Part shown: piece by piece, positions 16,248 to 42,122 of the stretch
Numbering within the stretch: the stretch's first letter is position 1
How the letters are laid out: every line of letters begins with the position of its first letter
IMG/VR virus record: IMGVR_UViG_3300006734_000008
Location: 1 to 64,000 of that record
Direction: 5' to 3' (one strand)
DNA: 64,000 nucleotides
Source of the DNA: a virus
The notes under the pieces: generated by a model
Databases searched by the model: none
What the model saw: only the letters and a program-made list of their open reading frames with translations
Told to the model about the DNA's origin: nothing
Position numbers and translations under genes: made by a program

Positions 16248-16260
16248 TTGTTTTCTTTAG

Positions 16261-16330
16261 TTGCGGAGGTGGGAGTCGCACCCACGGAGGCTGGCTTATG
16301 AGACCAGCTGGAATACTCATTCTCCCCGCA
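16261..16330 (-). tRNA. degenerate tRNA-like gene, anticodon CAT (Met/Ile2-type), shortened D-arm
   Basis: Minus-strand read: 7-bp acceptor stem TGCGGGG/CTCCGCA (one G-T), anticodon stem CTGGT/GCCAG with 7-nt loop CTCATAA, T-arm GTGGG-TGCGACT-CCCAC, discriminator A; D-arm only about 4 bp with 4-nt loop. Confidence 0.4.
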
Positions 16331-30326: not shown

Positions 30327-30400
30327 ACACTCATAGCTCAATTGGATAGAGCGACAGCCTTCTAAGCTGTAGGTTATAGGTTCGACTCCTATTGGGTGTA
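30327..30400 (+). tRNA. tRNA-Arg (anticodon TCT)
   Basis: Acceptor ACACTCA/TGGGTGT, D-arm GCTC-AATTGGATA-GAGC, anticodon arm ACAGC-CTTCTAA-GCTGT, T-arm ATAGG-TTCGACT-CCTAT, discriminator A. Confidence 0.8.
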
Positions 30401-30492
30401 CAACACTAGGTCGCACAGGCGTAGGGATTTAATAATTATAGATGATAAATATAGTCGCCTACAGAGAGTTGAAATACTTTCTCTAGTGGTAT

Positions 30493-30578
30493 GCAGGAGT
30501 GGTGGAATTGGTAGACACGCAGGACTTAAAATCCTGTGAGCAGTAATGTTCGTGAGGGTTCGACTCCCTCCTCCTGCA
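30493..30578 (+). tRNA. tRNA-Leu (anticodon TAA), type II with long variable arm
   Basis: Acceptor GCAGGAG/CTCCTGC, anticodon arm CAGGA-CTTAAAA-TCCTG, long variable arm, T-arm GAGGG-TTCGACT-CCCTC. Confidence 0.8.
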
Positions 30579-30592
30579 CTAAAAAAACAATA

Positions 30593-37338: not shown

Positions 37339-39315
37339 GTGATATATTTTGTAGGAGATTCGGAGAAGAGAGAGTCCATTCCCCTTGCATCTATTGAAGA
37401 TGCATTAAAATATTTTGAAGATAAGGAGTTTGTTGAAGTTGACACAGAGACTGAGGGTTTTGACCCTTGGACTAAAAATCTATTGTGTTGGCAGATAGGT
37501 GACGGAAATACTCAATTTGTAATTAGTGAAAAGGATTATCCTATTGCTGATTATAAAGAGTTTTTTGAACAGTCAGATAAAACATACTTATTTCAAAATG
37601 CAAAATTTGATTTGAGATTCTTATTCATGAATAATATTGTCTGCACTAAAGTGTATGATACATATCTCGTGGAAAGAATGCTTAATTTAGGTAAACCAAG
37701 ATTCCTTAGAATGAGTCTTGATGCCTTGGTTAAAAGATACTGCAACGTTGAGCTTAGTAAGGAAGTGCGTGGTCAAATTCATTACCGTGGGCTAGACGAC
37801 ACTGTAATTACTTATGCGGGACGTGATGTTAAGTATCTTAATCAAATTCGCACAGAGCAGATGAAGAAAGTAAAGAGACTAGGTTTAGAGAGGGCTATTC
37901 GCCTTCAAAATTCCTATTGTCCTGTACTTGCTTACTGTGAATTCTGTGGATTTAAATTGGACAAGGAGAAGTGGTTATCTCTATACAAAAGGAATATTGA
38001 AAAGCTAGAGAAGGTTGAAAAAGAGTTGGATGATTATATCATAAGAGATTTTCCAAAGTATCAAGAAAAACAGTTGGACATGTTCCTACCTGTTGGTTCT
38101 GCTATCAATTGGAATAGTTCTCACCAAGTCATTCCCTTCTTTGAGGATTTAGGTTTAGACCTAATAGTTGAAAAAGATGGAAAGAAATCCAAAAGTATCG
38201 AGGCCCCTGTAATAAGACCTCAAAAGGATAAACATCCTATCTTACCTGTGTATCTTAGGTACAAAGGTTTGCAAAAACAAGTATCTACTTATGGTACTAA
38301 TGTAACTGACCAGATTAATCCTGCCTCTGGTAGACTGCATACACAGTTTACTCAAATAATGGACACTATGAGACTCAGTTCTGGTGGTAAAGATTCTAGT
38401 ACAGGTGTACAGACTCTAAACTTCCAAAATATCCCTGCTGCAGAAGAAGTAAGAAGTTGCTTTGTTGCAGAAGAGGGTAATACTCTTGTTGTAGCTGACT
38501 ATTCAGGACAAGAGCAGATTGTATTAGCCAATCAGTCTATGGATGAGGGATTGTTGCATTTCTATGCACAGAATCTTGGAGATATGCACAGTTTTGTTGC
38601 TTCTAAGATATTCCCTGAGTTGAAAGGTTTATCTCTTAAGGAGATTAAAGCCAATTATCCTGAATTAAGACAGATTGCTAAAGCTGCAGGTTTTGCCATT
38701 AACTATGGTGGTAATGGTTGGACAATATCAAACAATTTATCTATTCCTATTGAACAGGGAGAAGCTGTATACAAAGCTTACTTTGATGCCTTCCCAGGTC
38801 TAAATGACTATTTCAAGAAGAAGAAAGATGAGTTATGGAAAAAGGGATATATTCTATTTAATGAGGTAGACCAATCCAAACTATTCTTTGATAAGCAATG
38901 GTTTGATACAGAACAAGAGAAACTCACTCCAGAATTTTGGGATGAGTACAGATACCATAAAGAAAAAGACGATGAATACTTTCATAGAGAGTTAAGACCA
39001 GTCGTTAGCACTTTTTATAGACAGAAAGCTGCAATTGAGAGAAAAGCATTGAACTATCCTATTCAAGGAACTTCAGCGAGTATCACAAAAGTAGCAGGTA
39101 TACTATTTCTCAACAAGTTGATAGAGCAGAACTTACTGTTTACAGTTAAGATTTGTAACTTCATTCATGATGAGATTGTAGTGGAATGCCCTGAAGAAAT
39201 TGCTGAACACGTCTCAAATCTTTTAAAAGTATGCATGGAAAATGCAGGTAACTACTACTGTAAAGTAGTTCCTCTACAAGCTGAACCTCAAATAACTTCC
39301 TATTGGAAACATTAA
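37339..39315 (+). CDS. polA: DNA polymerase I (family A) with 3'-5' exonuclease domain
   Basis: Exo I EVDTETEG; Pol motif A DYSGQEQIVLA, motif B RQIAKAAGFAINYG, motif C HDEIVVE. Confidence 0.85.
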   Translation: MIYFVGDSEKRESIPLASIEDALKYFEDKEFVEVDTETEGFDPWTKNLLCWQIGDGNTQFVISEKDYPIADYKEFFEQSDKTYLFQNAKFDLRFLFMNNIVCTKVYDTYLVERMLNLGKPRFLRMSLDALVKRYCNVELSKEVRGQIHYRGLDDTVITYAGRDVKYLNQIRTEQMKKVKRLGLERAIRLQNSYCPVLAYCEFCGFKLDKEKWLSLYKRNIEKLEKVEKELDDYIIRDFPKYQEKQLDMFLPVGSAINWNSSHQVIPFFEDLGLDLIVEKDGKKSKSIEAPVIRPQKDKHPILPVYLRYKGLQKQVSTYGTNVTDQINPASGRLHTQFTQIMDTMRLSSGGKDSSTGVQTLNFQNIPAAEEVRSCFVAEEGNTLVVADYSGQEQIVLANQSMDEGLLHFYAQNLGDMHSFVASKIFPELKGLSLKEIKANYPELRQIAKAAGFAINYGGNGWTISNNLSIPIEQGEAVYKAYFDAFPGLNDYFKKKKDELWKKGYILFNEVDQSKLFFDKQWFDTEQEKLTPEFWDEYRYHKEKDDEYFHRELRPVVSTFYRQKAAIERKALNYPIQGTSASITKVAGILFLNKLIEQNLLFTVKICNFIHDEIVVECPEEIAEHVSNLLKVCMENAGNYYCKVVPLQAEPQITSYWKH

Positions 39316-39906
39316 ATGTTAGATGTTCAGAATCAATTCTTATCTAAGTTGATTAAAGACCCTAATTTGGGTATTGTTAATCAGTTTTTGACAAGAATGG
39401 AAAAATATCATAGCTTCGACACTAATCTGTTTGAAGAATTTATGATGGTGTACTCATTATGTAAAGTTCTTGATGAACAAATGAGTACTTTCAAACCAAA
39501 TCTGCCTGTTTTGGTCACTCAGAATACTACTGACCAAATAGGATTATTAGGTTTAATGCTAGCTTTGTACACATCAGCTGACAAAGTTATTACATTTATG
39601 CCTAACCACGAGAAACGCAATGCAGTTCAAGCATTTCTGAATGAAACAAAGCTTGCTAATGAGATTGTAATAACCTCATTAGTAGCTACTTCAGCAGTAT
39701 TTGAAGGCAGCGTTAAGGATTATAAGTACCAACAAGTGTGTCAAGTAGAATTTTTAGGTCAACGTTACAACCTGAATATTCCACAGACATCATTTTTTCT
39801 TAGTCTAAATTGTATTCCAGAGTTAGATTTAGGAACTGTAGAAAATTATGATAGCTTTGGTAACAGGGTTTCAGTTTTATGTAACGACAATTATTCTCCA
39901 TTCTAA
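39316..39906 (+). CDS. hypothetical protein
   Basis: 196-aa ORF. Confidence 0.4.
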   Translation: MLDVQNQFLSKLIKDPNLGIVNQFLTRMEKYHSFDTNLFEEFMMVYSLCKVLDEQMSTFKPNLPVLVTQNTTDQIGLLGLMLALYTSADKVITFMPNHEKRNAVQAFLNETKLANEIVITSLVATSAVFEGSVKDYKYQQVCQVEFLGQRYNLNIPQTSFFLSLNCIPELDLGTVENYDSFGNRVSVLCNDNYSPF

Positions 39907-40430
39907 TGAGCAGAGATAGTAGAAGATTTAGGGCAGCTATACTTCCTTATTTCAGAGAAGAGTATCATCCACAAATCCAAGTTGAAATAACAACAAACAG
40001 ATTCAGACTAGGAACAACAGGTTTGGATGTGTTAATAGGGTTTAATATAACTACTCTTGCAGGTTCATGTGGTACAAAGTTCATTTCTCAATATGCTATG
40101 AACACAGAAAGATTGAACATTATGTTAGACTCTAGAAGAACTACAAAAAGTCTTCTAGAACGTATCTTTTCTGAATTCTATAAGCCTATGGAGGATATAT
40201 GGTCACTGAAAAGGGCAACTGGGCAATTTCTCATGTCAAATAATGAGATAAAAGCTCCAGAATTTGCAGCAGATGTAAGGAAAATTGCAAATAAGATTCA
40301 GGAGAGTTACAATCCTAATTCAAAAAGGAAAGTGACTATCTATGTTATTGATTTAGGTATATGCAAGAAAAGGATAGAGTCCAAAAAGAAGCATTACAAG
40401 CAGTCACGTCGCAAGGCGGTAGTGGCTTAG
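39906..40430 (+). CDS. hypothetical protein
   Basis: 174-aa ORF. Confidence 0.4.
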   Translation: MSRDSRRFRAAILPYFREEYHPQIQVEITTNRFRLGTTGLDVLIGFNITTLAGSCGTKFISQYAMNTERLNIMLDSRRTTKSLLERIFSEFYKPMEDIWSLKRATGQFLMSNNEIKAPEFAADVRKIANKIQESYNPNSKRKVTIYVIDLGICKKRIESKKKHYKQSRRKAVVA

Positions 40431-41466
40431 TAGCTATGGCTACAGGAACTGGTAAAACAAAAGTAGGAATTGACTACGTTGAATTGCTAAAGAACAAGGG
40501 AAGAGGAGAATCCTTTGGGTTGTACCCACAGAGAAACTCCGAGATGAAGGGATTAAACAAGAATTTGTTAAGTGGGGTTCTGATTTCAGCAAAGTCCATC
40601 TCGTATGTTATGCCAGTCTCAACAAACTAGAGGGTTATGAATTTGACCTAGTAGTTCTTGATGAATGTCATAGAATTACTGAAAACAATTATCAATTTTT
40701 TCAACAGAACAAGGTAGGAAATACCATTGGTTTGTCTGCAACACCACCTCATGAAGAGGTTAAAAGGTCATTGTTAGAGTCTATTGGTTTAAAAGTGGTT
40801 TACCATTTACCATTAGATGAAGCAGTTGCTTTAGGAATAGCAGCACCATATAAAATCAAGATTATAGAGTCTTTCTTAGATGATAAAGAGAAGTATATCT
40901 TAGCTGGTAATAAGAAGAATCGTTTTTATACGACCGAAATGCAGCAGTATCAATACTTGTCTAATCAAATAAGGAGAATAATGTTCTCAGGTAAGGATGT
41001 ACCTAAGTACTTATACCTTAACAGAATGAGATTTATCTATAATTTGAGAAGTAAGCATAATGTAGCCACTAGGTTATTGGCTTCACTTCCAAAAGAAGAC
41101 CGAATCCTTATATTCCATAAATCAATTCCTAGAATTGATGAGTTGTGTGCTCACACTTTTCATTCTAAGACTAATGATGAGGCATATAAGAAGTTCATAG
41201 AGGGCAAAATAAGCCGTTTAGGAGTAGCTGATAAGGTCAATGAAGGTACTAACATACCTAATGTCGATAAAGCCCTTGTAGTGCAATTAAATAGCCAACC
41301 AAGAGAACTTATCCAACGTCTTGGACGTATCGTAAGATGGAGAGAGGGACATCAAGCAGAATTTTATATTATGCAGGTGTTACAAACTCAGGATGAGAAA
41401 TGGGTAGCTAAAGCATTGCAGGACTTAGATGGACCTGTTGAATACATAAATGCAAAAAACATTTAG
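40361..41466 (+). CDS. SF2 DExH-box helicase, interrupted by a -1 frame change near 40483-40520
   Basis: Motif I MATGTGKTK in frame of 40361; motifs Ia ILWVVPT, II DECH, III SAT, VI QRLGRIVRW in the frame of 40732; both frames are open across 40483-40630. Confidence 0.55.
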
Positions 41467-42122
41467 TGGAACAACTGAACGTTTATGTTGTAGGAGGAGC
41501 TTTAAGCTATATAGGTGTCTTAAATGGCTTAGATATTAAGCCTAGAGATACTAAAGTACTAACTGAGGCAGATTTAGTTCTGTTTACTGGTGGTGCTGAT
41601 GTGTCACCTAAGTACTATGGTGAAAAGTTTCACCCAACAACATATGCAAACCCAAAACGTGATGAATTAGAGGCAAGAGTCTTTGCTATGGCATCAGCTA
41701 TGAAAATACCTATGTTGGGTATTTGTAGAGGTTCGCAGTTTCTTACAGTCATGAATGGTGGAAAACTAGTGCAAAATGTGTCCAGTCACGCAATGGTTGG
41801 AAAGCACTCAGTTAGATTCAATAAGAAGAATAATGGCGTTAAAATTGCCATGACTTCTACACATCACCAAATGATGTATCCATATAATCTACCAAAGGAT
41901 GAATATGAATTAGTTGCTTGGGCAGAACCAAGCCGTAGCTCCTTGTATGAGCGTGGTGATGGAGAAACCTATACTGTTCAAAATGAGCCTGAGATAGTTT
42001 ACTATCCAAAAAGTAACTCTTTGGCTATTCAAGGACATCCAGAAAGACAACTCAGTGATGGAATTGTCATGGGAGTAATGGGTTACATCATCAACAAGTA
42101 TCTATTTGATGAAATTCTTTAA
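41466..42122 (+). CDS. class-I glutamine amidotransferase-like / peptidase C26 (gamma-glutamyl hydrolase-type) protein
   Basis: Catalytic triad context GICRGSQFL (Cys) and IQGHPE (His-Glu). Confidence 0.55.
   Translation: MEQLNVYVVGGALSYIGVLNGLDIKPRDTKVLTEADLVLFTGGADVSPKYYGEKFHPTTYANPKRDELEARVFAMASAMKIPMLGICRGSQFLTVMNGGKLVQNVSSHAMVGKHSVRFNKKNNGVKIAMTSTHHQMMYPYNLPKDEYELVAWAEPSRSSLYERGDGETYTVQNEPEIVYYPKSNSLAIQGHPERQLSDGIVMGVMGYIINKYLFDEIL

Follow-up and report, generated by a model that had tools for sequence, protein, structure and literature searches.

The window analysed here is a 64,000-nucleotide stretch of viral DNA (IMG/VR record IMGVR_UViG_3300006734_000008, positions 1 to 64,000), in which a DNA polymerase A gene (37339-39315) is followed by two small ORFs, then by a locus bearing the motifs of an SF2 helicase (40361-41466) and, downstream of this, by a GATase/Peptidase_C26-like ORF (41466-42122). 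The helicase motifs are distributed over two reading frames. The ORF 40361..40630, in phase 2, has a product that begins MQEKDRVQKEALQAVTSQGGSGLVAMATGTGKTKVGIDYVELLKNKG... and includes the Walker A motif (ATGTGKT, 40439-40459; TGTGKT, 40442-40459), while phase 1 carries RILWVVPTEKL (motif Ia, W at 40516), DECH (40660-40671), SAT (40735-40743) and QRLGRIVRW (41314-41340), its translation reading ...KRRILWVVPTEKLRDEG...LDECH...SAT...QRLGRIVRW...INAKNI. The phase 1 frame is open from 40483, directly after a TGA, up to the stop at 41464-41466, and it overlaps the upstream frame across 40483-40630; the direction of the change is -1, and the A/G-rich stretch lies at 40487-40513. The original prediction had placed the Walker A motif in the frame starting at 40361, motifs Ia, II, III and VI in the frame of the ORF at 40732, and a -1 change beside the A/G-rich stretch where both frames are open and overlap, and reading of the frames confirms each of these points. 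The features to which we refer throughout, all on the + strand, are as follows:

40361..40501, +, helicase segment 1 in the 0 frame, 47 codons from the ATG to the Gly codon GGA
40480..40482, +, -1-frame stop TGA, bounding the possible shift interval on its 5' side
40488..40501, +, conserved shift cassette TAAAGAACAAGGGA, with candidate slip sites A_AAG (40489-40492) and G_GGA (40498-40501)
40501..41466, +, helicase segment 2 in the -1 frame, with the TAG stop at 41464-41466, reading KRRILWVVPTEKL...
40505..40540, +, hairpin, putative frameshift stimulator, with outer stem GGAG/CUCC, inner stem UGGGU/ACCCA and loop UGU
40628..40630, +, 0-frame stop TAG, at which the unshifted product would end after 89 amino acids

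Segment 1 contains a Q-motif-like QKEAL and the Walker A motif, ends ...ELLKNKG and can be aligned to the N-termini of homologs that are encoded in a single frame. Segment 2 provides motif Ia (40516-40539), DECH, SAT and QRLGRIVRW, and if the slip takes place at G_GGA then A40501 would be read twice at its start. Joining the frames anywhere in their overlap gives a protein of 368 amino acids with no residue missing, which is collinear with, and equal in length to, the in-frame homologs. Against Pfam this joined protein matches ResIII (6e-17, 62 bits), DEAD (5e-12, 46 bits) and Helicase_C (5e-7, 30 bits), all three above their cut-offs, and the ResIII match (residues 7-74) spans the frame junction. 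The family profile finds archaeal XPB/Rad25 helicases as a single match spanning residues 6-335 (E ~1e-20). The AlphaFold model of the joined protein (mean pLDDT 85.9) has an XPB-like fold, and XPB chains are the top Foldseek matches to it; in the model the junction (residues 47/48) is placed in a loop between the post-P-loop helix (32-45) and the motif Ia strand (51-55). Motifs I, Ia, II (DExH), III and VI occur in order, with two RecA-like domains, and by motifs, Pfam, profile and predicted fold the joined product is an XPB/Rad25-like SF2 helicase. It resembles archaeal XPB and the XPB of TFIIH in these respects but, unlike XPB, lacks an N-terminal damage-recognition domain and is reduced to a minimal core of 368 amino acids.

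Among cultured phages, the closest are the Flavobacterium phages FpV4/FpV21 (genus Fipvunavirus), which show 43% identity in the helicase and share the same module of DNA polymerase A, helicase, GATase-like and DnaB-like genes. A megablast of the region against cultured phage genomes gave no match, and tblastn found distant in-frame homologs only (Fipvunavirus, 43%; crAss-like phages, ~28%); a single frame encodes the helicase in FpV and in every more distant relative. In one GenBank record, MW442830.1 (Flavobacterium phage FPSV-D18), the helicase matches two separate places, while in sister phages it is one piece, which may reflect a rearrangement or an assembly break in that record.

A sequencing or assembly indel had been put forward as one source of the apparent frame change, and the only point in its favour is that the change amounts to a single base. 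Against this, the frame change is identical in the JGI, ENA and Logan assemblies of the window phage: the split ORF pieces are on record from five JGI contigs as well as from the ENA and Logan assemblies, and the window is matched at 100% identity, frame change included, by the ENA MEGAHIT contig (102,410 nt) over 3.7 kb and by the Logan contig over 2.6 kb. Moreover, the closest protein matches of the window helicase are all truncated, and their contigs carry the same split. The same -1 change is found at the same place in six lineages, namely the window, L001-L008, L012, L013/L098/L099 (L098 and L099 being IMG/VR contigs grouped with L013), L014 and L183-L185, the sixth of these having been found by a search with N-terminal fragments. 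The five lineages other than the window show 64-70% protein identity, comprise dozens of contigs from unrelated samples and share the change each in its own sequence context. For the L001 type, 24 contigs were read, and the eight shown, L001-L008, come from eight different sequencing runs and have a 47-amino-acid ORF followed by one of 276 amino acids. The change is also kept through divergence within lineages, with 39 mismatches in 1361 nt (97% identical) and zero gaps between L013 and L098, and six mismatches from L001 in each of L002, L003 and L006. In every frameshifted lineage 74 nt separate motifs I and Ia, a spacing that misses a multiple of three by one base, and the downstream frame is at -1; in the closest in-frame relatives this spacing is 75 nt. 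The homopolymer at the site is merely G3 or A3. An indel error is thus not borne out, and we regard its probability as practically nil. A single-frame version of the gene does exist elsewhere, as the comparison with orthologs proposed in the original prediction shows: in 95 of the 95 other related loci in which both motifs could be paired, motifs I and Ia are in one frame.

The distribution of the change suggests an old event. In a neighbour-joining tree the six frameshifted sequences and one in-frame sequence, P0002 (L175, 3097-3210), form a single clade in 150/150 bootstraps, with P0002 sister to L183 in 142/150; monophyly of the frameshifted sequences was therefore rejected, since the in-frame P0002 nests inside the clade. 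L175 reads ...AGC GGT AAA AAG ATT..., without the G_GGN or A_AAG cassette, and is probably a natural revertant by a 1-nt insertion. The most parsimonious history of these sequences is one gain at the base of the clade and one reversion in L175, so that the shift has been long kept but is losable; that a member of the clade is in frame also implies that the shift is dispensable.

Most close relatives carry, in addition, an insertion of 1-2 kb exactly between Q-R and (L/I)-G-R of motif VI. It lies at 3832-5106 in L001 and at the same codon in L012, L098, L183, L175, L176 and L177, and is absent from the window and L014; past it the helicase resumes as IGRVVRLREDH...INAKNI. Its inner ORFs have no Pfam family and an Rfam intron search of L001 and L012 was empty; it is probably an intron or other mobile insertion. 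Homing-endonuclease genes are found a few genes downstream of the helicase (GIY-YIG/NUMOD at 5411-6088 in L014; LAGLIDADG at 5927-6550 in L177), which points to a hotspot for mobile elements in the replication module. Upstream, a 174-amino-acid ORF with no Pfam match (39906-40430 in the window) overlaps the helicase start by 70 nt; its equivalent in L014 and L183 overlaps the helicase by ~50 nt, and it is absent from L001 and L012.

A pseudogene had likewise been among the explanations offered, and would mean that an old 1-nt deletion killed the helicase, other replication proteins covering its role. The DnaB-like helicase also encoded downstream (Pfam DnaB_C matches in relatives) and the large motif VI insertions that relatives tolerate would fit such decay. 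The substitution pattern, however, does not. In Nei-Gojobori comparisons of the first five frameshifted lineages, the 47-codon N-fragment has pN 0.23-0.38 and pS 0.50-0.72, and the C-fragment pN 0.16-0.25 and pS 0.57-0.79, so that pN is far below pS in both. Although synonymous sites are near saturation, both halves retain all motifs, every one of them intact across the six lineages, and the frames in use have acquired no further stops or indels. As judged from these alignments, both halves are under purifying selection, the idea of a pseudogene does not hold up, and we consider a decaying or dispensable gene very improbable. The frame change itself is real, inherited, under selection and required for a complete helicase.

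The place at which the frame must change can be narrowed considerably. In the window the -1 frame has a stop (the TGA at 40480-40482) six codons before the conserved Gly, and the equivalent stop is present in L012, L098, L014 and L183, so that in five lineages a shift could not take place further upstream; the 3' bound is given by L001 (GGU UAA) and L012 (GGA UGA), in which a 0-frame stop follows GGN directly. The possible shift interval is thus ~19 nt (40483-40501), and because of the -1-frame stops upstream and the 0-frame stops after the Gly, the interval permitted in common is YUA AAG RRC RWG GGN (40487-40501 in the window). Within it falls a 13-nt cassette, TAAAG-N2-C-N2-GGG, that is invariant in all six lineages despite the saturated synonymous sites and has a single match in the 64-kb window. 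The lineages read as follows, with the codon after GGN included:

Window: CTA AAG AAC AAG GGA AGA
L001: TTA AAG AAC ATG GGT TAA
L012: TTA AAG AAC AAG GGA TGA
L098: CTA AAG AGC AAG GGA AGA
L014: CTA AAG AAC AAG GGA AGA
L183: TTA AAG GAC GTG GGC AGA

A slippery heptamer with a downstream structure had been suggested as something to look for at this locus: no canonical X_XXY_YYZ heptamer is present in the permitted interval 40483-40501, while a conserved hairpin does lie downstream. On reading the sequences, AAG (to AAA) and GGN (to GGG) are the only 0-frame codons in the interval that could re-pair at -1 in all six lineages. They are preceded by CUA or UUA in the case of AAG and by AAG, AUG or GUG in the case of GGN, and since AUG or GUG precedes GGN in several lineages, tandem re-pairing would be impossible there. 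Sites of the A_AAG type and those containing G_GGA are known to be shift-prone in bacteria and phages, and shifts at "shifty stops" are also known (PMC5009743).

We attempted to choose between the two codons from substitution patterns, codon usage and hairpin geometry, and the evidence points both ways. For G_GGN, the GGG never varies, although just 7.5% of the Gly codons in the phage are GGG, the preceding codon varies in amino acid (K, M, V) but has G as its last base throughout, GGN shows the third-base variation of a normal wobble position, and in two lineages a 0-frame stop follows directly, as at a shifty stop. For A_AAG, the cassette's unvarying G5, C8 and G11 fall on wobble positions when read in the 0 frame but on the first base of a codon when read in the -1 frame, and with AAG in the P site the full hairpin begins 7-9 nt past the A-site codon; the tetramer is moreover a classic bacterial -1 shift-prone sequence (PMC5009743). 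We give the two about equal odds. The predicted products differ in two residues, NK versus EQ, the junction peptide being ...ELLKNKGKRRILW for a slip at G_GGA and ...ELLKEQGKRRILW for a slip at A_AAG.

The hairpin (40505-40540) is located within the codons for (R)RILWVVPTEKL, its inner stem being formed by the codons for (F/I)LWV and VPTEK. The window hairpin has a free energy of -14.2 kcal/mol and its counterparts in the other five lineages range from -11.9 to -19.8 kcal/mol; in all six it begins 1-3 nt past GGN, or 10-12 nt past AAG. The usual distance from slip site to structure is 5-9 nt, so the spacing here is unusual. As a control, each sequence was compared with 2000 synonymous-codon shuffles that keep the protein. 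The window hairpin gave z = -2.4, with a fraction of 0.019 of shuffles at least as stable; all six hairpins were more stable than their shuffles (z -1.1 to -3.8; fractions at least as stable 0.0005-0.13), and an earlier shuffle test on five lineages gave fractions of 0.000-0.035. The in-frame relatives gave z = +2.0 to -2.4 in the same test, and two of them, L177 and L175, have the hairpin too. Much of the stem is imposed by the conserved peptide (the FLWVVPTEK codons), so that even the shuffles average -8 to -10 kcal/mol. The outer stem of 4-5 bp is lineage-specific yet complementary (GGAG/CUCC, AAGU/ACUU, GAAG/CUUC, GUAAU/AUUAC); covariation is confined to it and its register shifts by lineage, and column by column there is essentially none, the RNAalifold covariation term being about zero. 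A long-range pairing around the site (AGAAC/GUUCU), which RNAalifold gave with five sequences, was lost on adding the sixth lineage. A terminator and promoter scan found no terminator, so the hairpin is not one, and neither the window segment 39800-41600 (E-value threshold) nor L001 and L012 (gathering threshold) matched anything in Rfam, frameshift-element and intron models included.

The same features bear on two further explanations, in which the ribosome would not change frame. One is that the helicase is split, a 47-89-amino-acid Walker A peptide working in trans with a C-terminal protein that has its own initiation, through termination-reinitiation or coupling. There is an ATGA stop/start overlap at the L012 junction, a TTG just before WVVPTEKL in L001 and L098, and gene callers annotate two ORFs, all of which would suit this arrangement. 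The -1 frame of the window, L014 and L183, on the other hand, offers no start codon (ATG, GTG or TTG) until past motif Ia or II (in the window the first is the TTG at 40732, past motif II), so a C-fragment started there would miss core motifs. The model also places the break within RecA-like domain 1, where it separates helix 1 from strand 2, and the position of the 0-frame stop is not conserved: in L001 and L012 the stop directly follows GGN, in L014 and L183 it comes 31 codons further on. Two proteins working in trans are accordingly a most unlikely account of the locus.

The other is correction at the level of RNA, in which some mRNAs would be brought into frame by an additional base from the polymerase, such as G at GGG or U in a T-run. 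The net need is for +1 nt, which slippage could supply, and in L001, L012 and L098 a T6 run lies 8 nt downstream. This run, however, is missing from the window and L014, and the conserved homopolymers are only A3 and G3, with no A or T homopolymer of ~7 or more at the frame-change site in the cassette region; runs of ~7-9 A/T are known to support slippage by bacterial RNA polymerase (review PMC5009743). Nor does a downstream RNA hairpin play a part in polymerase slippage. We hold correction by the polymerase to be just as doubtful as a helicase split in two.

Of the options named in the original prediction, it is a programmed -1 ribosomal frameshift that the comparative data support, through the six lineages and the purifying selection on both halves. 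We consider it highly probable, on the strength of these sequence comparisons, that 40361-41466 encodes one XPB/Rad25-like SF2 helicase that would be made only by way of a -1 ribosomal shift inside UAAAGAACAAGGGA (40488-40501). That the correction is ribosomal, and that the hairpin stimulates the slip, are what we infer from the arrangement of the site. In the mechanism proposed, the hairpin would hold up the ribosome, and a single peptidyl-tRNA would meanwhile slip back by one base, this being tRNA-Gly (from GGA to GGG at G_GGA, 40498-40501) or tRNA-Lys (from AAG to AAA at A_AAG, 40489-40492). In the two sister lineages with a 0-frame stop directly after GGN, the stop may add to the hold-up. 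After the slip, translation would continue in the -1 frame through motifs Ia to VI, while ribosomes that do not shift would yield a peptide of 47-89 amino acids with a non-conserved tail, which is presumably useless. The purpose could be a low or regulated dosage of the helicase, or the shift may be tolerated as a means of compensating for an old 1-nt deletion.

Several known systems share part of this design. Escherichia coli dnaX also has a -1 shift in a replication gene, at A_AAA_AAG, with a Lys AAG codon as in one of our candidates and a stem-loop just downstream; in dnaX, however, shifting yields a truncated protein, and tau and gamma are each put to use, whereas here it would occur 47 codons in and be needed for the only meaningful product. 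The window site also lacks the heptamer and the upstream SD-like element of dnaX, and its hairpin spacing is atypical. The hosts are probably Bacteroidota, given the relatedness to Flavobacterium phages, and in Bacteroidota Shine-Dalgarno-based stimulation is not expected. The lambda G/GT tail assembly chaperone (G_GGA_AAG) is likewise a phage -1 frameshift with G_GGA in its slip site, but uses a full tandem heptamer to make two functional proteins in a fixed ratio, while at the helicase sites (G_GGA_AGA, G_GGU_UAA or G_GGA_UGA) a single tRNA could re-pair. Transposases of the IS3 family (OrfAB) are similar in that overlapping 0 and -1 ORFs are fused, with an A_AAG-type slip and a downstream hairpin or pseudoknot, but have a canonical heptamer and an OrfA that functions by itself; the upstream ORF here is a fragment of a catalytic domain. 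An obligatory frameshift early in an ORF, giving the only functional product as proposed here, is found in prfB (RF2; CUU_UGA), and as at prfB and other shifty stops the peptidyl-tRNA would slip beside a slowly decoded 0-frame codon, which in L001 and L012 is a stop immediately after GGN. Peculiar to prfB are the +1 direction, an SD-like stimulator 3 nt upstream and autoregulation via the level of RF2. A frameshifted phage SF2 helicase was not found in targeted full-text literature, a large recoding review or the PRFect paper, an absence that does not amount to proof of novelty. Most likely, then, this is a known mechanism in a new example, with an atypical single-tRNA, non-canonical slip site.

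The window also encodes tRNA-Arg(UCU) (30327-30401, +), tRNA-Leu(UAA) (30493-30579, +) and tRNA-Met (16260-16330, -). The first of these reads AGA, the 0-frame codon right after GGN in four of the six lineages, and UUA is the first -1-frame codon in L001. It is conceivable, if improbable, that the shift acts as a sensor, the share of ribosomes that slip being set by the decoding speed of the 0-frame A-site codon (G_GGA_AGA or G_GGN_stop) and the phage tRNA-Arg(UCU) thus tuning the frameshift. Were this so, helicase output would start high early in infection and drop with the build-up of the phage tRNA, or follow the opposite course, and a phage-encoded tRNA would tune a programmed frameshift in a replication gene.

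At present, annotation pipelines call two ORFs for this helicase, one tiny and one truncated, and databases list the pieces as separate proteins; as a result the replication module is mis-described for the whole clade, phages of roughly 90-105 kb related to Flavobacterium phages. If the frameshift is confirmed, a replication helicase would join the short list of phage genes that use recoding, and the clade would offer a natural non-heptamer -1 site with six natural variants and one natural revertant to compare.
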